Shown here: positions 7,793 through 17,992 of the stretch, piece by piece
Layout of the letters: each line of letters opens with the position of its first letter
Position numbering within the stretch: position 1 is the first letter of the stretch
NCBI GenBank assembly: GCA_020845755.1
Contig: JADLFE010000014.1
Coordinates: 4,181 to 68,180, forward strand
Direction of reading: 5' to 3'
Source: Phycisphaerales bacterium
Lineage (GTDB): Bacteria; Planctomycetota; Phycisphaerae; Phycisphaerales; UBA1924
Length of the DNA: 64,000 bases
Notes under the pieces: model-generated
Database searches by the model: none
What the model saw: only the letters and a program-made list of their open reading frames with translations
Told to the model about the DNA's origin: nothing
Program-made: the position numbers and the translations under genes

Positions 7793-8338
7793 TCAGCGAC
7801 GGCGGCGCGAGGCAAGAACGCCCGCGATGCCCATCAGCGCGAGAGAAGCCGGGGAGGGGATGCGGGCGATGCCTTCAAAGCCTGGGTTGTACGGGCTGGC
7901 GAAGTAGTCCGTGCCCGAGTATGCCTCGCCAAACGCGTAGCCGAACGCGAAGAACTTGACCTCCGATGGAGCATCGAGGCTCGTCACGAGTGCCTTGAAC
8001 CCCGAGAGATGATGCCCGGGCAGGAGCGAGGCATATGCGCTTGTTCCGTCGGTCCAGACGTTGTCGTACGTGGTGTCCGAGCCGCCGTACGGGAAGTTGT
8101 TCCAAGTGATGTTGAGGTTCGGATCGTACGGAGGTGGGCTGTCAACAATGTTGCGTGCTCCGAGTTCGACGCCGAAGAAGTACACGTCCATGGTCGCGGG
8201 ATTCAGGTTGTTGGTCACGTCAAAGTCCAGCACCCATGCGCCCGGGGTGCCTGACACCGAGAACGTGACGTCAACGGGGCCTGCGGCCGCGACCCCGCTC
8301 AGCAGCGAAAGCGCAACTCCGCCAAGTGCGGTCTTCAT
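7793..8338 (-). CDS. PEP-CTERM-anchored secreted protein, paralog 1
   Basis: 181 aa. ATG 8336-8338 is preceded by AAGGAG. Signal peptide MKTALGGVALSLLSGVAAAG. The C-terminus IPSPASLALMGIAGVLASRRRR has a PEP-CTERM-type layout: P-x-P, a hydrophobic helix, then an Arg cluster. Confidence 0.8.
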   Translation of the reverse strand: MKTALGGVALSLLSGVAAAGPVDVTFSVSGTPGAWVLDFDVTNNLNPATMDVYFFGVELGARNIVDSPPPYDPNLNITWNNFPYGGSDTTYDNVWTDGTSAYASLLPGHHLSGFKALVTSLDAPSEVKFFAFGYAFGEAYSGTDYFASPYNPGFEGIARIPSPASLALMGIAGVLASRRRR

Positions 8339-8506
8339 CTCAATTCTCCTTTTCTCATACCAGCACTAGTCCGTGGCATGTCGTACATGACATGTCGGCC
8401 CGATTCTTTGGGACGCTTCGTCCTGGGGCAATGAGCCAAACTACCCAGTGCTCTATGGGGATTTCCATCCTGCAATCTTGTGCAATGTGCGTAGCCAAAG
8501 AAGAAA

Positions 8507-8532
8507 AACGCCCGCGATCCATCGCGGGCGTT
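8507..8532 (-). terminator. Rho-independent terminator of PEP-CTERM gene 2
   Basis: AACGCCCGCGA-TCCA-TCGCGGGCGTT with an 11-bp stem. The minus-strand RNA continues with UUUUCUUCUUUGG. It lies 28 nt after the stop at 8560-8562. Confidence 0.62.
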
Positions 8533-8559
8533 GCAAAGGACGGACACGTTGATGATCGA

Positions 8560-9108
8560 TCAGCGGCGGCGGCGCGAGGCAAGCACGCCCGCGAGGCCGA
8601 TCACACCGAGCGAGGCCGGGGCGGGGATGTGGGCGATGCCTTCGAAGCCGGGGTTCTGCTGGTTATTGAAGTTGTCTGTGCCGTTGTACTGGCCGCCGTT
8701 GGGATCGTTGGCATAGCAGAAGAACTTGACTGATGTCGGGGCCGAGGGACCGGTGTAGAGGGCCTGGAAGCCTGAGAGCGAGCCGCCGGGGAGGATGCTG
8801 GTGTAGTTGGAGTTGAAGTCGATCCAGTTGTTGTTGTAGATGGTGGACGAGCCGCCGAAGCCCGAATTGTCCCAGGTCGCCCAGGAGTTGGGGTCAAAGT
8901 TCGTGGGGCTCCCGACGATGTTGCGACCCGTGTCGAGTTCAACGCCGAAGAAGTAGAGCCCCATCGTCGAGGGATTCAGGTTGTTGGCCACGTTGAAATC
9001 AAGCACCCAGTTTCCGGGTGATCCGGAAACCGAGTACGTCACGTCGACCGGGCCTGCATAGACAGCGCTGGCGGAAATCGCGAGGATGGCGGCGGCAGCG
9101 ACCTTCAT
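8560..9108 (-). CDS. PEP-CTERM-anchored secreted protein, paralog 2
   Basis: Track ORF 8560..9150(-). Start moved to ATG 9106-9108 (MKVAAAAILAISASAVYAG), which is preceded by GGAGAA. The protein is collinear with paralog 1 (GPVDVTYSVSGSPGNWVLDFNVANNLNPSTM...NPGFEGIAHIPAPASLGVIGLAGVLASRRRR). Confidence 0.8.
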   Translation of the reverse strand: MKVAAAAILAISASAVYAGPVDVTYSVSGSPGNWVLDFNVANNLNPSTMGLYFFGVELDTGRNIVGSPTNFDPNSWATWDNSGFGGSSTIYNNNWIDFNSNYTSILPGGSLSGFQALYTGPSAPTSVKFFCYANDPNGGQYNGTDNFNNQQNPGFEGIAHIPAPASLGVIGLAGVLASRRRR

Positions 9109-9152
9109 TCGGGTTCTCCACTCATCTGGGCTTTCTGGCAAGAAACACAAAC

Positions 9153-9172
9153 GTCACGCGAGAACGCGTGAC
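9153..9172 (-). terminator. Hairpin GTCACGCG-AGAA-CGCGTGAC, probable greA terminator
   Basis: 8-bp perfect stem. On the minus strand it is followed by GUUUGUGUUUCUU. It lies 131 nt after the greA stop. It also sits about 45 nt upstream of PEP-CTERM gene 2, so an operator role is not excluded. Confidence 0.45.
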
Positions 9173-9302: not shown

Positions 9303-9773
9303 TTACACGATCTCGACGATCTCGAACCGCTTCACGCCGCGGGGGGCATCGACGCGGACGGTGTCGCCCACGCGTGCCTTGAGCATGGCCTGGCCCATGG
9401 GGCTGGTGGCGGTGACCTCGACGTAATCGAGCGGCGGCTGGGCCGAGGCTTCGCCGACGAGGCGGAAGAGGTCCTCGTCGTTGTTGTCGACGTCGCGCAT
9501 CTTGACGGTGGTGCCGACGACGACCAGGCCCTCGATCGCCTTGGACATGGACTCGTCGATGATGGTGACGCTGGCGAGGCGCTGCTGGAGGCGGCGGATC
9601 TCGGCCTCTTCGAGGCCCTGCTGCTCGCGGGCGGCGTGGTAATCGCCGTTTTCCTTCAGGTCGCCCAGGGCGCGGGCCTCGGCGATGCGCGTGGAGATCA
9701 CCGGGCGGTTATCGATGAGGGCCTTGAGTTTGGCCTCGATCCCTTCGCGTTCGGCTTTGGTGATGAACTCCAT
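9303..9773 (-). CDS. greA: Transcription elongation factor GreA
   Basis: Track ORF 9303..9839(-). Start moved to ATG 9771-9773 (MEFITKAEREGIEAKLKAL), preceded by GGAGG. Contains ALGDLKENGDYHAAREQQG and a C-terminal FKBP-like VRVDAPRGVKRFEIVEIV. Confidence 0.92.
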   Translation of the reverse strand: MEFITKAEREGIEAKLKALIDNRPVISTRIAEARALGDLKENGDYHAAREQQGLEEAEIRRLQQRLASVTIIDESMSKAIEGLVVVGTTVKMRDVDNNDEDLFRLVGEASAQPPLDYVEVTATSPMGQAMLKARVGDTVRVDAPRGVKRFEIVEIV

Positions 9774-9864: not shown

Positions 9865-10812
9865 CTAGGCCGAGGGCGGGGACGGGACCACCGGCGGAAT
9901 CGGCGCGGGAAATAGCCTCGCGATCCACGCCGCGCGAAGCCAGGAAGCGAGTGCACCGAGCGCAAGCCCCGCGATGGCGAGCCACTGGCGGGATTCCACG
10001 CGGATTCCGAGGCCGGACCACGGGCGATCGGCGACAATCGCGTTCACGCAGGTAATGGGCGAGGCGAGCAAGAGCATGCTGGGGTCGGAATTCGGTTCGC
10101 GGGGCTGGGTTACCAGTGCGATCGCCGGGGCGAGGGCGACGACCGCGACGATGGCGAGCATGGCGACGAGACGAGTGCGTGCCGGATTCCCCTCGCCGGC
10201 GCGAAGTTTCTCGAGCGAGGCCGCGAGCATACCCGCGATGATGAAGAGCCACGCGAGGATCGAGAGCGCCAGCGCGATGGTGATGCTGGTGCTCCATCCG
10301 GCGAGGAACCAGAGGCGCTGGGGCAGGAGAATCGCGACCAGCGGGATGAAGACGACAGGGAGGTCACGGAGCGCCACGCGTGTGCCGCGGATCGGCTCGG
10401 GGGGCTGGCTCAGCCGGAAGAGCGGCCAAAGGAGGCAGGCGCAGGTGAGGCCGACGGAGACGAGCGTGCGCACGGCGGGGCGATAGACATCTTGGCCGAG
10501 GATGCCCGTTGAGGTGGTGCTGGCGAGAAGGACGACCGTGCCAATCGCAAGCAGCGTGGTCCAGAAGAACGCGAGTGGGCGCGGCTCAGCGCGGCGATGG
10601 GCCCAGCGATCACGCGGCGGCGCATGGTCCGGCGAATCGGGTGATACGTTCGTTGACTCGATCGATGAACGTGAATCGGTGACGGATGCGTCAGCCAGAG
10701 ACGGCTGGCGCGCGGTGTCATCGGATCCCGGCGGCGGCGCTGGGGTCGAACTTGGCTCAGGCGCGGGTTCGGGCGCGTGCTCCGGCGCGGGATCGCGCGG
10801 GAGATCGCTCAT
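9865..10812 (-). CDS. Polytopic membrane protein of unknown function with Pro-rich N-terminal tail
   Basis: 315 aa. ATG 10810-12 overlaps the ftsQ stop (10809-11) in an ATGA overlap. About 80 aa of disordered P/S/D-rich sequence are followed by about 7 hydrophobic helices (FFWTTLLAIGTVVLLA, LVSVGLTCACLLWPLF, VVFIPLVAILLP, ITIALALSILAWLFIIAGML, LVAMLAIVAVVALAPAIALV, WLAIAGLALGALASWL). No family recognised. Confidence 0.6.
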   Translation of the reverse strand: MSDLPRDPAPEHAPEPAPEPSSTPAPPPGSDDTARQPSLADASVTDSRSSIESTNVSPDSPDHAPPRDRWAHRRAEPRPLAFFWTTLLAIGTVVLLASTTSTGILGQDVYRPAVRTLVSVGLTCACLLWPLFRLSQPPEPIRGTRVALRDLPVVFIPLVAILLPQRLWFLAGWSTSITIALALSILAWLFIIAGMLAASLEKLRAGEGNPARTRLVAMLAIVAVVALAPAIALVTQPREPNSDPSMLLLASPITCVNAIVADRPWSGLGIRVESRQWLAIAGLALGALASWLRAAWIARLFPAPIPPVVPSPPSA

Positions 10813-11738
10813 TGATCGGGGTTTTCCGGCTGGGCGCTGGCGGCGGCGTTGATCACCATCGGGCGCGACTCCCAGAAGATCTCGACCTCGGGCTTGCCGG
10901 CGTCGATCGACTTGAAATTGCGGTTGAGGAACTCGATCTGGGCCAGTTTCTTGATCGTGCTGGCCTCGCCGAGGAGCGGCTGCGTGGGGCGCCCGCCCCA
11001 GATCACGCGTGTGTCGCGCTTGGTGACGATCGCGGTGCGTTTGTCCTTGCGAAAACTCGCCACGTCAACGCCCGCGACCTGATCTCGCCACGGCTGATTG
11101 AGCGAGAGCGCGAGCAGTTCAAGTCCCGCCTGAAGATCGGCGCCCGGCCAGACCTTCAGGCAATCGACCGCGCCGGTCTCGGTGAATGGCGGCTTGGCTT
11201 CCACACCGAGAAGCACGGGGAGATTCGACTGGCCGGCCGGATACACAGGCGGCATGGGACGCCCGTCGCTGGCGATGAGGTAGTCCTTGCCCGCGTTGCG
11301 GATGACAGCGACGGGGACGCGCCAACGCCCGGTGATACGAACGGCACGCCCGGGCTCGCGGACGACGGTGGGATTGGTGTCGAACCAGCCGCTGGTGCCG
11401 AGCGCTTCGCCGACGGCGGCGAGTTCGTCGGCGCCGATCTGCACCGCGACCTTTCGATCGGGCGTGCCCAGCGCGGTGTAGGCGAGTCTGAGCAACTCGT
11501 CCTGGAAGGCCTCGGGGAGCCAGGTTCGGGCGGTCGCTTGGGAGTTCTCGCCCAGCCTCGGCCATTCGATCTGAACGATGGGCGGGAGCGCATCGGAGAC
11601 GCGCACGGCGCGCTCATCGATGGCGCGACGCCCCAGCACCACGCCGGTGATGATCGCGATCACGATCAACGCGGTGAGCGTGATGGAAGCGCCGGCGACG
11701 ATCTTCTGCTTGCGGGAGTTCTTGCTGTCCGTAGCCAC
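10809..11738 (-). CDS. ftsQ: Cell division protein FtsQ-like (TM anchor + POTRA)
   Basis: 309 aa with a GTG start at 11736-38. One N-terminal TM helix (ASITLTALIVIAIITGVVLG). POTRA-like stretch VRITGRWRVPVAVIRNAGKDYLIASDGRPMPPV...NLPVLLGVE. Sits directly downstream of murC-murB-ddl. Confidence 0.7.
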   Translation of the reverse strand: MATDSKNSRKQKIVAGASITLTALIVIAIITGVVLGRRAIDERAVRVSDALPPIVQIEWPRLGENSQATARTWLPEAFQDELLRLAYTALGTPDRKVAVQIGADELAAVGEALGTSGWFDTNPTVVREPGRAVRITGRWRVPVAVIRNAGKDYLIASDGRPMPPVYPAGQSNLPVLLGVEAKPPFTETGAVDCLKVWPGADLQAGLELLALSLNQPWRDQVAGVDVASFRKDKRTAIVTKRDTRVIWGGRPTQPLLGEASTIKKLAQIEFLNRNFKSIDAGKPEVEIFWESRPMVINAAASAQPENPDQ

Positions 11739-11795: not shown

Positions 11796-12734
11796 CTAGG
11801 AACGGCGGTCTCGCCACGCCATTTCGACCAACGCACTGACCAGGTTCGGCAAGGGCGTGCCCGCGTGGGCCGCCGCCTTGGGATACAACGAATGACTCGT
11901 GAAGCCCGGCATGGTGTTGACCTCGAGCATCCACGCGCCGCCGGACTTGTCGAGCAGGAAATCGACACGGCAGAGGTGCCGCACGCCGAGGTCCTTGGCC
12001 AGCGCCACGGCACGCTTTGAGATCGCGTCCTTCACACCCGCGGGCAGCGGCGGATCAACGACATACTTCGTGTCGTCACGCAGGTACTTGGCCTCGTAGT
12101 CGTAGAACTCCGTCGCGGGCTGGATGTGGATCGGCGGGAGCGCCCTGGCGTCGCCCTGCGGGTCATACACGCCGACGGTGAGTTCGATCGCATCGACGAG
12201 TTGCTCGAGCATGTAGACGCGCCCCGGATGGGCGAGCATGTCCTTGGCGGCGGCGGCGCGAGCGGCGGCCCACTTTTCCTTGCTCTTGCAGAGATGCACG
12301 CCGACGCTCGATCCCTCGTGCACGGGCTTGACCACGACCGGGATGCCCAGCGGCGAAACTTCGTCATTCACATTGAACACGACGGCGGGCGCGGTGGGGA
12401 TGCCGAGTCGCCACGCGGAGGCCTTGGTGGCGAGTTTGTCCATCGCCAGACGTGCCGCGACCGGACCGCACCCGACATAGGCGATGCCGGCTTCTTCGAG
12501 ACGGTCCTGGAGCGGACCGCCCTCGCCGAACGGGCCATGAAGGACGGGGACGATGACATCGGCCTTCAATCCGCGAAGATCGGGGATGCTGGGGCGATCG
12601 ACGACGATGCGTTCAACGTCGTACCTGCCGGACTTGACCAGGCCGTCGTAGACACCCTGCGAGCTGTTGAGGCTCACTTCGCGTTCGGCATCGGGGCCGC
12701 CGCCCAGAACAACAACACGGCGCGGGCCGCTCAT
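11796..12734 (-). CDS. ddl: D-alanine--D-alanine ligase
   Basis: 312 aa. Contains LHGPFGEGGPLQ, VVKPVHEGSSVGV and WMLEVNTMPGFTSHSLYP. ATG 12732-34 overlaps the murB stop (ATGA). Confidence 0.93.
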   Translation of the reverse strand: MSGPRRVVVLGGGPDAEREVSLNSSQGVYDGLVKSGRYDVERIVVDRPSIPDLRGLKADVIVPVLHGPFGEGGPLQDRLEEAGIAYVGCGPVAARLAMDKLATKASAWRLGIPTAPAVVFNVNDEVSPLGIPVVVKPVHEGSSVGVHLCKSKEKWAAARAAAAKDMLAHPGRVYMLEQLVDAIELTVGVYDPQGDARALPPIHIQPATEFYDYEAKYLRDDTKYVVDPPLPAGVKDAISKRAVALAKDLGVRHLCRVDFLLDKSGGAWMLEVNTMPGFTSHSLYPKAAAHAGTPLPNLVSALVEMAWRDRRS

Positions 12735-13684
12735 TTGGTTCTCCTCCAGATCACGACTTCGGGATGGAGCGTGACGCCGAAGCGTGCGAAGACGCCGAGG
12801 GCGACGCGGTCCATGAGTTCGATGACGTCGCGGGCGCAGGCGCCGGCGTCGGTGACGATGAAATTGCCGTGGCGCGGGCTGACGGAGGCGCCGCCGACGC
12901 GCAGGCCCTTGAGCCCTGCGCGATCGATGAGCATGCCGGCGGAGACGCGCGAGCCTGCGCGATGGACCTCGTGGGGCTTGGGCGCGCCGGGGTCGGTGCT
13001 TTCGAGCGTGAGGTCTTCCGTCAGCGTGGGGTTCTTGAAGACGCAGCCGGCGCTCTTTTCGGCCATGGGCTGGGTCTTGCTCTTGTACGCCATCACTTCG
13101 AGGTGGCGGGCGCGGAGCGAAGCGGGATCCGCGGGCGACAGATTGAACTCGACCTCGGTGATGATGAGATTGCCGAGGCCCGAGTGGCGGTAGTCAAACG
13201 CGATCCGCGGGCGATCGAGCGTAACGGATCGCCCCTGGCGATCGAGCGCGTGGATGCGGGCGACGGCATCGGCGATCTGGCCGAACGCGCCGCCGGCGTT
13301 CATGATGACCGCGCCGCCGACGCTTGCGGGGATGCCACCGAGTGATTCGATCCCGGCGAGCCCGCGGCGCACGGTTTCGTTGATGAGTTTGGGGAGATTC
13401 GCACCCGCGCCGGCGCGGAGGCGCGTGGCGTCAAACGTCCAGCCACGGAAGGTGGGGCCTTCGAGCACGACGACAAGTTCCGCCACGCCTTCGTCGTCGA
13501 CGAGGAGGTTGGCGCCGTCGCCCAGGATGCGGAGGTTGGGGTCGAGGCGGATGCACTCAGCGAGTCGGTCGAGCGAACACGGGCGTGCGAGGCGATCGGC
13601 CTTGCCGCCGATGCCGAACCACGTGGGGATCGGCGCGTCGTACTCGATCTCGAGCGATGTCTGGGGGGCGTCCAGCGCGTTCAC
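12731..13684 (-). CDS. murB: UDP-N-acetylenolpyruvoylglucosamine reductase
   Basis: Track ORF 12731..13960(-) overlaps murC. Start moved to GTG 13682-84 (VNALDAPQTSL), preceded by GGGAGGAGAG. Contains GGIPASVGGAVIMNAGGAFG and SAGCVFKNP. Confidence 0.9.
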   Translation of the reverse strand: MNALDAPQTSLEIEYDAPIPTWFGIGGKADRLARPCSLDRLAECIRLDPNLRILGDGANLLVDDEGVAELVVVLEGPTFRGWTFDATRLRAGAGANLPKLINETVRRGLAGIESLGGIPASVGGAVIMNAGGAFGQIADAVARIHALDRQGRSVTLDRPRIAFDYRHSGLGNLIITEVEFNLSPADPASLRARHLEVMAYKSKTQPMAEKSAGCVFKNPTLTEDLTLESTDPGAPKPHEVHRAGSRVSAGMLIDRAGLKGLRVGGASVSPRHGNFIVTDAGACARDVIELMDRVALGVFARFGVTLHPEVVIWRRTK

Positions 13685-13706
13685 GGGTCTCTCCTCCCTG
13701 GGCCCG

Positions 13707-15314
13707 CTAGGCGGAGCGGGCGAGGCGCTGGGCGATGGGGGCAAGGTCGAGCAGGCTTGGGGGAAAGGTGGGCGCCGGCCCAGCCTCGCTCGCGTGAGCA
13801 TGGGCGGCGGCGACAAAGCCCTTGGCGACTTCGTAGACGTTGCCCGCGCCCATCGCGACCACCACATCGCCGTCGTGGCAGATGGTCTCCAACTGCTCGA
13901 TGATCGCCGCGAAGGGGTAGAGGTGCATGGCACGCACGCCGCGCTGGCGCAGACGATCAACCAGGTCGGCGGCGGTGACCTTGTGGCGTTCTTCCTCGCT
14001 GTCGCGGACGAAGTAGATGTCGGGCACGATCACGATGTCGGCCGAGGAGAACGACTGGGCAAACTCGTCGAGCAGGTGACGCGTGCGCGAGTGCTGGTGC
14101 GGCTGGAAGACGCAGATGAGGCGCCCGCCGCGTTCTTCGGGGCGTTCGTGCTCGCGCAGGGCGCGGAGGGTGACATCGACCTCGGTCGGATGGTGCCCGT
14201 AGTCGTCGTAGACGCGGACATGACCGCCCGCGCGCGAGGGACGCACCCCGATCAGTTGCATGCGCCGGTCGATGCCGCGGAACGAGGCGAGTGAGCGAGC
14301 GACGGCCAGCGGGTCCGCGCCCGCCAGGGTGGCAAGCACACAGGCGACCGCCGAGTTCATGGCGTTGTGCGCACCGGGTATGGCGAGTTGCCACTGGGCG
14401 AAGAACTCGCGCCGGTTGTGGAGCGTCACACCGCGGGTTGTGGGGTCGTAGCCGACCACCCAGTCGGCGCTGGGGGTGAAACCGATGGTCTGGACGTCGC
14501 AGGCAAGTCCGGCGGTGACTTCACGCCGGTGGGCGTTGTCGTGGGCGATGACGAGCGTGCCGCCCTGCGAAGCAGGGGGCAGGAGCGTGGCGAAGTGGTG
14601 GAAGGATTCGACGACGGCATCGAGCGTGCCGTAGACATCGAGGTGGTCGGCCTCGACGGAGGTGATCGCGGCAAGTTGTGGGCGATAGTTGTGGAACGAG
14701 CGGTTGTGCTCGCAGGCCTCGGCGACGAGGATGCCGGGGCGGCCGGCCAGACGCCCGTCGGGGATCGCGTTGGCACCCAGGCGGAAGCCGGCGGGGCGTG
14801 TGATGGGTGCGTTGGCGCCGTGAAGGAGTTGGCTGGATGTAGCGCCCACGATGACGGTCGGGTCGAGGCCCGCGTCGGTGAGGGCGCAGCCGGTCATGGC
14901 GGTGGTGGTCGACTTCCCGTGCGTGCCGGCGACGGCGATCGCGGTCCGGCCGAGCATGCAACGCCCCAGGGCCTCGGCGTACCAGATCGCGGGGATGTCG
15001 CGCCGGGAGGCTTGGGCAAGTTGGGGGTGGTCGGGTTTGATCGCGGCCGAGGCGATCACCAGGTCGCACCGCTCGGGGAGCGGGTCGGTCAGTTGGCTGA
15101 AGGTGACACGGATGGACTCGGCGGCCAGAGCGGCGGTCGACTCCGACGGGCTGTTGTCCGAGCCCTGCACGATCGCGCCGCGTGAGGCGAGCATGCGGGC
15201 CAGGCCCGACATGCCGCAGCCGCCGATTCCGATCATGTAGACGTTGCGACCTGCGACGTCGAAGGCGTCGCGGGGGGATGAAAACGCATCGGGAGCAAGG
15301 GGAGGAGTCACCAT
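13707..15314 (-). CDS. murC: UDP-N-acetylmuramate--L-alanine ligase
   Basis: Track ORF 13707..16127(-). The first 271 codons are R/P/H-rich and overlap the Nudix gene. Start moved to ATG 15312-14 (MVTPPLAPD...VYMIGIGGCGMSGLARML); ATG 15341 is the alternative. Contains GTHGKSTTT. Confidence 0.9.
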   Translation of the reverse strand: MVTPPLAPDAFSSPRDAFDVAGRNVYMIGIGGCGMSGLARMLASRGAIVQGSDNSPSESTAALAAESIRVTFSQLTDPLPERCDLVIASAAIKPDHPQLAQASRRDIPAIWYAEALGRCMLGRTAIAVAGTHGKSTTTAMTGCALTDAGLDPTVIVGATSSQLLHGANAPITRPAGFRLGANAIPDGRLAGRPGILVAEACEHNRSFHNYRPQLAAITSVEADHLDVYGTLDAVVESFHHFATLLPPASQGGTLVIAHDNAHRREVTAGLACDVQTIGFTPSADWVVGYDPTTRGVTLHNRREFFAQWQLAIPGAHNAMNSAVACVLATLAGADPLAVARSLASFRGIDRRMQLIGVRPSRAGGHVRVYDDYGHHPTEVDVTLRALREHERPEERGGRLICVFQPHQHSRTRHLLDEFAQSFSSADIVIVPDIYFVRDSEEERHKVTAADLVDRLRQRGVRAMHLYPFAAIIEQLETICHDGDVVVAMGAGNVYEVAKGFVAAAHAHASEAGPAPTFPPSLLDLAPIAQRLARSA

Positions 15315-15386
15315 CGCAGAGGGTATCGGATACGCGGGCATTGGAGCGTGAAAGCCGGGCGAGGTGTTGCGTTGTATCCTCGTTGC

Positions 15387-15923
15387 ATGAACGTCACCGG
15401 CTCGTCCGAATCCCTCCCCTACCGCATTGCGTGCCTGTGCGACCTCCGCGACGAGCAGGGACGAATCCTGCTGCTCCGCCGGGCCAAGTCGCCCAACATG
15501 GGGCTGTGCTCGCCGATCGGCGGCAAACTGGACGTTGAGACGGGCGAATCGCCGGCCCAGTGCGCACAGCGGGAGATCATGGAAGAGGCGGGGATCGAGG
15601 TCCCGATCGAGCGTCTGCACCTGATCGGGCTGGTCAGCGAGCAGGCGTTTGAGGGCAAGGGGCACTGGTTGATGTTCGTATACCGGGTGCTTGGCCCGGT
15701 GAGGGTGACACGGACGCAGATCAGAGAGGGGACGCTGGAGTGGTTCGAGGAATCGGAGGTTGACACGCTCCCCCTTCCCGAAACCGACCGGATGATCATC
15801 TGGCCGCTGATGCGCACGCACGAGGCCAGCGGGCCGAAGGGTGGGCCGGGGTTCTTTGCGGTGCATATCGATTGCCGGGCACCCGAACTGCGCTGGACCG
15901 TGGAGCAGGAGACCCCTCACTAG
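15387..15923 (+). CDS. Nudix hydrolase
   Basis: Nudix box GGKLDVETGESPAQCAQREIMEEAGI. Start placed at ATG 15387 (MNVTGSS). The track start at 15348 is also possible. Confidence 0.8.
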   Translation: MNVTGSSESLPYRIACLCDLRDEQGRILLLRRAKSPNMGLCSPIGGKLDVETGESPAQCAQREIMEEAGIEVPIERLHLIGLVSEQAFEGKGHWLMFVYRVLGPVRVTRTQIREGTLEWFEESEVDTLPLPETDRMIIWPLMRTHEASGPKGGPGFFAVHIDCRAPELRWTVEQETPH

Positions 15924-15985
15924 GTGAGGCAAAGCAGGCAAATCGGTTGTGAATCGAAACGATCCCGGTCCCGTATACTGATGAC

Positions 15986-17992
15986 GTGAAGACACACTGT
16001 CGTCTCGCGTCGGGCATGGAAGGCTCGCACCGCACGATCCTCGCGTGGGTGACGCGTTGCATTCTGCTTCTGTGCGGGCTTGGGACGTTCGCATATGGGC
16101 AGGCGGCTCAGGTGTCTCCTCCAACACAGCCCATGGCGGTGCCGGCGTCGCGCCAGGCCAAGAACATCGCGGTCATCACGATCAAGGGACCGATCTCGTC
16201 GCTCACGTTCAAGAGCCTCGAGCGACGACTGCAACTGGCCAAGCGGGCGGGGGCCGACGCGGCGGTGATCGAACTCGACACTCCGGGCGGGGAACTCGGG
16301 GCGGCGTTGGACATTACATCCCTGCTCAAGCGATCCGACACACCCATCCCCAACACGGTCGCGTGGGTTCATCCCAACGCGTTTTCGGCCGGGTCGGTGA
16401 TTGCGCTCGCGTGCCGCGAGATCGTCGTGAGCGAAGGCGTGAACTTTGGGGATGCGCTGGTCATCGCGACCAACATGGACGGGACGCTCAAGAACCTGAA
16501 GGAGGCAGAGCGACAGAAGCTCACCGCCCCGCTGCTCTCGGACGTCGTTGATTCGGCGCGTCAGCGCGGGTACGACGAGTACCTCGTGCAGGGGTTCGTG
16601 ACACTGGGCGTGAATCTCTGGCAGGTCGAGAGCATCCAGACAGGGCAGCGGCTGTTCGTGAACGCGCAGGAGTACGAACTGATCTTCGGGCAGCCACCCG
16701 CGGACACCAGGCCCAGGGTGCCGAGCGCTCCGCCGGGCGAGACTGCCCGAAAAATCTTCTCTGGACGTGGCGAAAAGGCGTCGAAGAAAAGCACATCGAA
16801 TGACGGCGCGACTCCCGCCGATAGCACGCGAGGGCCCGAGGCCGTTCCATCGCCCGACCAGTCCGACCCCGGCACGCCGAATCCCGACCCACCCGCCAAA
16901 CCCGTCGAGGGGAATGACGCGAGCCAGCCGGCGGGGAATGGTGTGACGCAGACACCTCCACCACCAGGCCCACCGCCGGAGCATCCGCAACTGGTCGACC
17001 CCGCAACGGCGGTGAAGCCCGCCTCGCCGGCGGTGACGAACGTGGCGATCGATGCATCGGCGACGCAATCGCTCCCGACGCAGCGGCCGGTCTTCTCCGC
17101 GGCGGATCAAGGGAAGTATCGGCTTGTTGAATATGTCTCGGACGGCAACGGCCCATTGATCCTGAAGACGGCGGACATGGAGCGATACGGGCTGGCGCGC
17201 CAGGTGGTACGGAACGACGCCGAACTCATGGCATTCTTCGGCGCCAAGAACCTGCGCCGGCTTGATCCGACGTGGTCTGAGGGGCTGGTCGCGTTCCTGA
17301 CCAACCCGATCGTTCGGGGTGTCTTGATCGTCATCTTCCTGATCGCGTTGTTCCTGGAGATGTCGCACCCGGGCGTGACGCTTCCTGGGCTGGTCGCGGG
17401 CGTCGCGCTGATCGCGATTCTGGCTCCGCCACTTATCATCGGGATGGCGAACTGGTGGGAAGTGGCGGCGATCGCCGCGGGGATTCTGCTCATCGCGTTG
17501 GAGATGTTCGTGATCCCCGGCTTTGGCATCACGGGCATCCTGGGAATCCTGCTGTTGTTCGCGGGGCTGATCGGCACCTTTGCCCCCAGCGGCACGGACA
17601 GCCTCTTCCCCGATTCGCCGCAGGGACGAACGGAACTTCTGTACGGCGTCGCGACCGTGGCGATGTCGATCGCGACCTCGATGGTCGGGTGCTATTTCCT
17701 GGCCAAGCACTTTGGTTCGCTCCCGGTCATCGGGAGGCTGGTGCTCAAGAGCGCGCCGGCGAGCGAGGTGGACGAGAGTTTGTTTGCGGCGATCGCGCCG
17801 TCTGGTGAAGTTCGCGTCGGGCAGGTTGGCGAGGCGATCACGCCGCTCCGCCCATCCGGTAAGATGCAGGTGGGTGAGAAGGTGGTCGATGTCGTCGCCC
17901 AGATGGGCTTCATCGCGGCGGGCGCGAAGGTGCGCGTCGTGGGCGTGACGGAGTTCCGCGTCGAGGTCGAGGCGATCGAGGGCAACGCGTAA
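15986..17992 (+). CDS. NfeD-family membrane-bound ClpP-class serine protease (long form)
   Basis: 668 aa with a GTG start. ClpP-like domain (IAVITIKGPISS...VIELDTPGGEL...AFSAGSVIALAC), a Pro-rich insert, 4-5 TM helices, and a C-terminal OB-like GKMQVGEKVVDVVAQMGFIAAGAKVRVVGV. Confidence 0.8.
   Translation: MKTHCRLASGMEGSHRTILAWVTRCILLLCGLGTFAYGQAAQVSPPTQPMAVPASRQAKNIAVITIKGPISSLTFKSLERRLQLAKRAGADAAVIELDTPGGELGAALDITSLLKRSDTPIPNTVAWVHPNAFSAGSVIALACREIVVSEGVNFGDALVIATNMDGTLKNLKEAERQKLTAPLLSDVVDSARQRGYDEYLVQGFVTLGVNLWQVESIQTGQRLFVNAQEYELIFGQPPADTRPRVPSAPPGETARKIFSGRGEKASKKSTSNDGATPADSTRGPEAVPSPDQSDPGTPNPDPPAKPVEGNDASQPAGNGVTQTPPPPGPPPEHPQLVDPATAVKPASPAVTNVAIDASATQSLPTQRPVFSAADQGKYRLVEYVSDGNGPLILKTADMERYGLARQVVRNDAELMAFFGAKNLRRLDPTWSEGLVAFLTNPIVRGVLIVIFLIALFLEMSHPGVTLPGLVAGVALIAILAPPLIIGMANWWEVAAIAAGILLIALEMFVIPGFGITGILGILLLFAGLIGTFAPSGTDSLFPDSPQGRTELLYGVATVAMSIATSMVGCYFLAKHFGSLPVIGRLVLKSAPASEVDESLFAAIAPSGEVRVGQVGEAITPLRPSGKMQVGEKVVDVVAQMGFIAAGAKVRVVGVTEFRVEVEAIEGNA

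Follow-up and report, generated by a model that had tools for sequence, protein, structure and literature searches.

A single-copy membrane protein of the Phycisphaerales encoded between a putative divergent ftsQ and greA, and fused to GreA in several lineages

Cells of the Phycisphaerae divide in a manner resembling binary fission without FtsZ, FtsA or FtsB, which raises the question of what organises the process (PMC6952346). The question takes a concrete form at one locus within the DNA analysed here, a window of 64,000 nucleotides (nt) from a Phycisphaerales bacterium (contig JADLFE010000014.1, positions 4,181 to 68,180 of the forward strand) that constitutes part of contig 14 of a 4.24-Mb genome, 94% complete. 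Six co-directional open reading frames (ORFs) follow one another there on the minus strand in the order murC-murB-ddl-ftsQ-X-greA, where X is our name for a gene, and for its product, a membrane protein of 315 amino acids (aa) encoded at 9865..10812 on the minus strand. An initial annotation had read murC, murB, ddl and ftsQ as contiguous on this strand, with an ATGA overlap between murB and ddl, and had noted that the ftsQ stop codon overlaps the ATG of the 315-aa gene at a further ATGA and that greA follows; all of this is seen in the ORFs and in the sequence itself. From the apparent absence of ftsA and ftsZ it had gone on to propose that X is a lineage-specific partner of FtsQ in FtsZ-independent division. 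We find that X, which was previously undescribed, belongs to a conserved ddl-ftsQ-X-greA unit specific to a single order, and that it may relate to transcription as much as to division, because several lineages carry in-frame fusions of X to GreA, a link that the initial annotation had missed.

X is a single-copy hallmark of the order Phycisphaerales and is near-universal within it (orders and families being used here as GTDB ranks). A profile built from 36 diverse sequences detected X in 16/16 Phycisphaerales genomes and in 0/385 genomes of other Planctomycetota, and a first, narrower profile had detected it in 31 of the roughly 45 Phycisphaerales genomes searched, against none of 256 genomes from the other orders of the class. 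Only one copy is present per genome. At the level of proteins, a word-indexed search retrieved just 15 close relatives, and a HMMER profile search of 1.84 billion representative sequences gave a family of 322 protein clusters, 267 of them at E ≤ 1e-10, with nearly all of the listed matches falling in the range 200-345 aa.

The position of X relative to ftsQ was tallied for the 40 genomes in which X had been located, by comparing its coordinates with the results of an FtsQ search together with sensitive local searches. In 31/40 genomes, which represent five families of the order, X is the next gene after ftsQ and shares its strand; it lies elsewhere on the ftsQ contig in four genomes, at distances of 1.8, 21, 35 and 168 kb, and on a different contig in the other five. 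For one of the five different-contig pairs (genome G206) X and ftsQ are both located at contig ends, so that the two may in fact be neighbours. The same adjacency occurs in 6/6 metagenome contigs examined, and the synteny with ftsQ in related genomes that the initial annotation had put forward as a check is thereby found. In the window, the ftsQ stop and the ATG of X share the ATGA at 10809-10812, read as gatcaATGAgcgatc, and a 4-nt overlap of stop and start (ATGA, GTGA or TTGA) recurs in at least ten genomes, the gap in most of the remaining ones being 6-70 nt. A lone overlap of 4 nt is commonplace where operons are compact, and it is through its conservation, not through the single overlap, that the ftsQ/X arrangement goes beyond chance.

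Outside the Phycisphaerales the gene that follows ftsQ varies and includes mraZ, PGK, a pyridoxal phosphate enzyme and an unrelated protein with five transmembrane (TM) helices. When a membrane protein coupled to ftsQ in the manner of X was sought in other orders, it was these differing genes that were found downstream. In genome G003, from another order of the class, an unrelated 283-aa protein with about five TM helices and no Pfam match is encoded 69 nt after ftsQ (L044:2620-3471, minus strand).

The tie between X and GreA is at least as strong as that between X and FtsQ. greA adjoins X on its downstream side in 27/37 genomes, and in genomes G284 and G116 it is still found directly downstream of X although X has left ftsQ; the converse arrangement, ftsQ-X without greA, occurs in five genomes. 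Moreover, in each of the five genomes sampled from genus g2 the stop codon of X is absent and X is fused in frame to greA, with a predicted product of 469-499 aa. Single X-greA ORFs were located at L011:1447-2928(+), L012:1495-2973(+), L013:1480-2976(+), L016:871-2511(-) and L018:871-2277(-), and the corresponding proteins fall within P0227-P0263. A search with the fused protein yielded at least 33 protein clusters that combine an N-terminal X with a C-terminal GreA (380-553 aa, 36-95% identity), and several of the fusions are named at NCBI simply as 'transcription elongation factor GreA'. Those fusions that were viewed in genomic context retained the murB-ddl-ftsQ setting.

The C-terminal 155 residues of the fusion constitute a full GreA with the GDLKEN acidic tip. 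In this respect the fusion proteins of the relatives resemble the Gre factors GreA and GreB; they differ in adding an N-terminal X domain of six TM helices and 220-340 aa, the Gre factors known so far being soluble and about 160 aa long. In divergent examples the linkers can be short, down to about 13 residues from the end of the last helix to the Met of GreA in P0258. Among five g2 species the linker has undergone at least four indels, every one of which preserves the frame. On a tree of 198 X domains five changes between the fused and unfused states are needed, and at least three of these are forced by well-supported branches. Three g2 genomes that are complete or nearly so have no Gre-family gene apart from the fused copy, and the genome of the window carries three; the two further Gre-family genes of the latter lie in tandem on contig C11 (27619-28305). 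Because in-frame fusions recur, X and GreA appear to be at the least compatible within one polypeptide, and they are probably cooperative.

A literature search on the X-GreA architecture gave nothing relevant and, to our knowledge, it is undescribed. GreA proteins of 395-444 aa from other taxa (P0266-P0281, one of them labelled Candidatus Deferrimicrobiaceae) carry N-terminal extensions of 250-300 aa with no predicted TM helices and no X domain, and they represent a different extended-GreA architecture.

The gene upstream of X (10809..11738, minus strand) had been named ftsQ in the initial annotation. The name finds no support at the level of sequence. The 309-aa product has no Pfam and no NCBIfam match, a profile of 19 of its homologues retrieves no FtsQ among the PDB sequences, and POTRA_1 (PF08478) and FtsQ_DivIB_C (PF03799) each yield zero matches in the whole genome. 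It is the predicted fold and the place after ddl that support it. An AlphaFold2 model, with a predicted local distance difference test score (pLDDT) of 83.5 and a predicted template modelling score (pTM) of 0.71, shows a long N-terminal helix (residues 11-50) followed by an alpha/beta domain, an architecture of one N-terminal TM helix, a periplasmic POTRA-like domain and a beta domain. When this model was compared with the PDB using Foldseek, the top eight matches were all FtsQ, at E values from 2.8e-7 to 1.6e-5 and with a best TM-score of 0.55 on the target; the structures, some of them FtsQ-FtsB or FtsQLB complexes, came from Yersinia and E. coli, and they were followed in the ranking by DivIB and then by POTRA domains of Omp85/BamA. 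Homologues are present in 51/51 Phycisphaerae genomes tested, always in single copy, and lie downstream of ddl in the loci examined. As judged from the sequence searches, there is no other FtsQ candidate in the genome.

We therefore accept the 309-aa protein as a divergent FtsQ on the basis of its modelled fold and its position after ddl. Like FtsQ/DivIB it would possess a single N-terminal helix, a POTRA-like and a beta domain, and its gene follows ddl at the end of the division and cell wall (dcw) cluster; unlike them, it is invisible to sequence models, its usual partner FtsB/DivIC yields no match above threshold, and the ftsA-ftsZ pair that normally comes after ftsQ is missing. The gene begins with a GTG codon, with GAGGA just before it. 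In two metagenome contigs that carry X-GreA fusions (L084:4042-5109 and L086:136-1235) the upstream ftsQ matches are split over two frames, and either an assembly frameshift or a disrupted ftsQ would produce this pattern.

The absence of ftsZ and ftsA, which the initial annotation had noted at the locus, extends to the whole genome. For FtsZ (Tubulin/FtsZ family, PF00091) there is no match, in a search whose control was positive in 13/14 reference genomes; the search for FtsA (PF14450) matches only a 376-aa MreB and a 719-aa PilM; and FtsB/DivIC (PF04977), which with FtsL is a known complex partner of FtsQ/DivIB, yields just a match below threshold at E 0.05. All of this agrees with the published picture, in which the Phycisphaerae retain most dcw genes without ftsZ, ftsA and ftsB (PMC12283558) and FtsZ has been lost but FtsQ kept across the phylum (PMC12283558, PMC6952346), so that this part of the result was already known.

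X itself has neither an actin-like domain, as in FtsA, nor a tubulin-like domain, as in FtsZ, according to Pfam. Moreover, X cannot be a general substitute for FtsA or FtsZ in the phylum, nor explain FtsZ-less division across it, because X is limited to one order while the loss of FtsZ is phylum-wide. The proposal that X is a lineage-specific partner of FtsQ is thus partly supported: it gains from the absence of ftsZ and ftsA and from the strong synteny with ftsQ, and it loses from the confinement of X to one order and from a tie to greA that is at least as strong.

What kind of protein X might be was approached through its sequence family and a predicted structure. X has no match in Pfam, NCBIfam or the PDB sequences, a profile search of the latter included, and when Pfam was run on each of 36 members of the family no known family was found. 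The AlphaFold2 model, based on 36 diverse sequences, has a mean pLDDT of 82.6 and a pTM of 0.77, and its membrane core is confident. The core (residues 78-300; 9913..10581, minus strand) contains six long helices, TM1 at 78-102, TM2 at 107-135, TM3 at 143-166, TM4 at 175-205, TM5 at 210-234 and TM6 at 274-300, and the loop between TM5 and TM6 (235-273) carries two short helices; the count of about seven hydrophobic helices in the initial annotation is revised accordingly. The Pro/Ser/Asp-rich tail of about 80 aa reported there does exist, and it is corrected to an N-terminal position and to residues ~1-70 (10603..10812, minus strand). The tail is rich in Pro, Ser, Asp and Glu, variable in sequence and disordered in the model (pLDDT 45-66), and alignments show that other families of the order have a short tail or lack it.

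Both termini of X are likely to be cytoplasmic. The N-terminus is placed inside by the positive-inside rule, given RDRWAHRRAEPR just before TM1, together with the C-terminal fusions to GreA, a cytoplasmic protein; these fusions also place the C-terminus in the cytoplasm. In the alignment of the 36 sequences the near-invariant residues are R78, W129, P130, R133, L134, D150, W173, W188, R214 and W291, and seven of the ten would lie at or near the cytoplasmic face of the model. Of the others, W173 is in the TM3-TM4 loop and W188 in the middle of TM4. The same alignment shows no Cys, His or Ser conserved across the order, the conserved residues being only Arg, Asp, Trp, Pro and Leu. X is thus unlikely to be a hydrolase or a sortase, and its membrane core is apparently non-catalytic. 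A role as a protease or sortase had been considered in view of the PEP-CTERM proteins encoded next door, and it was rejected for lack of an order-wide conserved Cys, His or Ser. Two further identities were discarded. A replacement lipid II flippase of the MurJ/Amj-like kind would not be needed, since MurJ occurs throughout the order, with PF03023 present in 26/26 genomes, that of the window included. FtsB and FtsL are bitopic coiled coils, and an analogue of these was rejected since X is polytopic with short periplasmic loops.

Comparison of the X model with the PDB, using Foldseek, produced one consistent lead. Nearly all of the top 50 matches are membrane domains of ATP-binding cassette (ABC) transporters of the ABC-2 type (type V), among them NosY, ABCG2, ABCG16, ABCG25, ABCG5/8, KpsM, ABCA4 and ABCA7. 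The best scores are weak, with E 0.023 for NosY (7znq_Y), a TM-score of 0.47 on the target for 7o0y_E, and root-mean-square deviations of 8-10 Å. Compared with exporters of this class (NosY, ABCG2, KpsM and Wzm-like proteins), the X model is alike in its six helices, in having both ends probably in the cytoplasm and in the short helices between TM5 and TM6. It is unlike them in that X shows no sequence or profile similarity, has no ATPase gene nearby and reaches only TM-scores below 0.5. None of the 36 members matches an ABC2 Pfam family at E below 1, and hhalign assigns a probability of 0.4% to the alignment of X with genuine ABC2_membrane_2 proteins of the same order. We consider the predicted resemblance to be a lead on architecture, not an indication of family membership.

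Our favoured explanation, which we put forward tentatively and rate as possible rather than probable, is that X acts in the inner membrane as a scaffold or adaptor, located beside FtsQ and retaining GreA there as its cytoplasmic partner. The helix bundle of X would associate in the membrane with the single-helix FtsQ of a division and peptidoglycan machinery devoid of FtsZ and FtsA, and the cytoplasmic face of X, with its C-terminus, would hold soluble GreA at the FtsQ site. In the fusion lineages X and GreA would be linked covalently; in the genome of the window their association may be non-covalent. A bolder version, in which X tethers the cell's Gre factor to the FtsQ-containing division and cell-wall machinery, either covalently or, for the genome of the window, non-covalently, seems to us quite improbable. 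If it were true, the rescue of stalled RNA polymerase, or a regulated release of GreA, would be coupled to envelope growth in cells without FtsZ and FtsA, and the fusions would provide the first membrane-anchored Gre factor as well as a new class of FtsQ partner.

Several observations weigh against assigning X such a role beside FtsQ. Operon position can be inherited without functional meaning. X is separated from ftsQ in the four genomes that carry both on the same contig and across contigs in at least one more, and greA is not adjacent to X in ten genomes. In family f5 X has neither ftsQ nor greA as a neighbour; a shared alternative neighbour was sought there and none was found, the flanking ORFs being mutually unrelated. 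In the g2 linker the substitutions show no bias towards the third codon position, in an analysis that is unable to tell disordered coding from non-coding sequence, and a Shine-Dalgarno-like stretch of the type AGGAAGGA is conserved ahead of the GreA Met; translation may thus start internally and yield free GreA, with the fusion as a tolerated by-product. Furthermore, we know of no precedent for a membrane-tethered Gre factor.

These observations leave room for three other explanations. X could be mainly a partner of GreA, either a membrane anchor or a sequestering receptor, with no role in division and with an adjacency to ftsQ that reflects operon history. This would account for the recurrence of in-frame fusions with frame-preserving indels, for a linker as short as that of P0258, for the fused copy as the sole Gre factor in g2, for the retention of greA where X is apart from ftsQ (G284 and G116) and for conserved residues that face the cytoplasm. 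It accords less well with an adjacency of X to ftsQ that is as frequent (31/40) as its adjacency to greA (27/37), with the five genomes that have ftsQ-X without greA, with the widespread 4-nt ftsQ/X overlaps and with the genome of the window, where a stop codon and about 90 nt are retained between X and greA, and we regard it as somewhat unlikely. Alternatively, X may be a conserved membrane protein whose housekeeping role has nothing to do with its neighbours; it would have come to lie between ftsQ and greA at the base of the order and been retained there, the fusions being neutral losses of a stop codon between close, co-directional genes in a GC-rich genome. Synteny inside one order can indeed be inherited, a GC content of 65-70% makes stop codons rare, the g2 linker is without a coding-like substitution pattern, and X stands alone in family f5 and in genomes G095 and G081. 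However, the adjacency has been held over five families at 20-35% X identity while the surrounding genes vary, and the start/stop overlaps have been re-created with different start codons (ATGA, GTGA and TTGA). The fusion state has changed independently at least three times, and the at least four g2 indels are all frame-preserving, an outcome with a probability of about 1% under neutrality by a rough estimate. An unrelated role therefore appears unlikely.

The remaining explanation follows from the modelled fold and would have X as the membrane subunit of an ABC-2 (type V) transporter that exports an envelope component, its ATPase being encoded elsewhere. The predominance of ABC-2-type membrane domains among the top 50 Foldseek matches points in this direction, as do the six helices, the two cytoplasmic ends and the short TM5-TM6 helices of the model; the most conserved segments of X, before TM1 and in the TM2-TM3 loop, also lie at what we take to be the places where ABC-2 permeases contact their ATPase. 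Yet no Foldseek match reaches E 0.001 and the TM-scores stay below 0.5, the profile-profile probability against ABC2_membrane_2 proteins of the same order and the ABC2 Pfam searches of all members give no support, and none of the loci examined, in the window or in relatives, contains an ABC ATPase gene in the operon. A transporter subunit joined to GreA would, moreover, be hard to rationalise, and we hold this explanation to be very doubtful.

Some dcw clusters end in taxon-restricted genes, such as ylm, sepF and divIVA, which follow ftsZ in Gram-positive bacteria. X is comparable in being a taxon-restricted gene at the distal end of a cell-wall and division cluster, and it differs in being unrelated in sequence and fold, in being polytopic and in lying directly after ftsQ in an organism without ftsA and ftsZ. 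Whatever the role of X may prove to be, the locus indicates that FtsQ can persist in a form that sequence models miss, and it provides a concrete candidate for studies of division in an order-specific family whose genes accompany ftsQ, often with translational coupling. Database entries labelled 'GreA' turn out to be predicted six-helix membrane proteins with a C-terminal GreA, and in one genus no other Gre factor is present. This implies either a membrane-bound transcript-cleavage factor or a supply of GreA from a start site inside a membrane-protein gene, and both have so far gone unannotated.

The rest of the unit is conventional in content. murC, which encodes UDP-N-acetylmuramate-L-alanine ligase (13707..~15350, minus strand; Pfam Mur_ligase, Mur_ligase_M and Mur_ligase_C), keeps its place in the gene order in relatives, and its start is approximate since the open frame continues upstream. 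murB follows (Pfam FAD_binding_4 and MurB_C) as a maximal ORF at 12731..13960 on the minus strand, with a real start probably at ~13.69 kb, as its homologues are of 311-316 aa. The maximal ORFs of both genes (murB 12731-13960 and murC 13707-16127, both on the minus strand) overshoot the likely starts far upstream, and overlong open frames are usual at high GC. Given that the homologues of murC (479-564 aa) and of murB are shorter, the TTG at 13960 and the GTG at 16127 are probably not the real starts of murB and murC, respectively. ddl, for D-Ala-D-Ala ligase (11796..12734, minus strand; Pfam Dala_Dala_lig_N and Dala_Dala_lig_C), overlaps the murB stop at the ATGA at 12731-12734, read as aaccaaATGAgcggc. 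greA, for the transcript cleavage factor (9303..9773, minus strand; Pfam GreA_GreB_N and GreA_GreB), lies beyond the gap of about 90 nt after the X stop and starts from the ATG at 9773 as MEFITKAEREG, with the acidic tip motif GDLKEN intact.

A consensus scan, in which matches are matches to a pattern only, located a terminator-like GC-rich hairpin with a T-rich tail at 9153..9172 on the minus strand, 130 nt after the greA stop. Between murC and the greA stop, the sole terminator-like match on this strand is at 12730-12717, inside ddl, which leaves the hairpin as the one such site outside a coding frame. The hairpin at 9153-9172 is thus a candidate for the 3' end of a murC-greA unit, and the pattern is consistent with a single transcription unit. 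It sits just upstream of a gene for a PEP-CTERM paralogue, and the region directly past the operon (window positions 7793-9150, minus strand) encodes two tandem exported paralogues of ~180-196 aa with a PEP-CTERM-like anchor (...GVLASRRRR).

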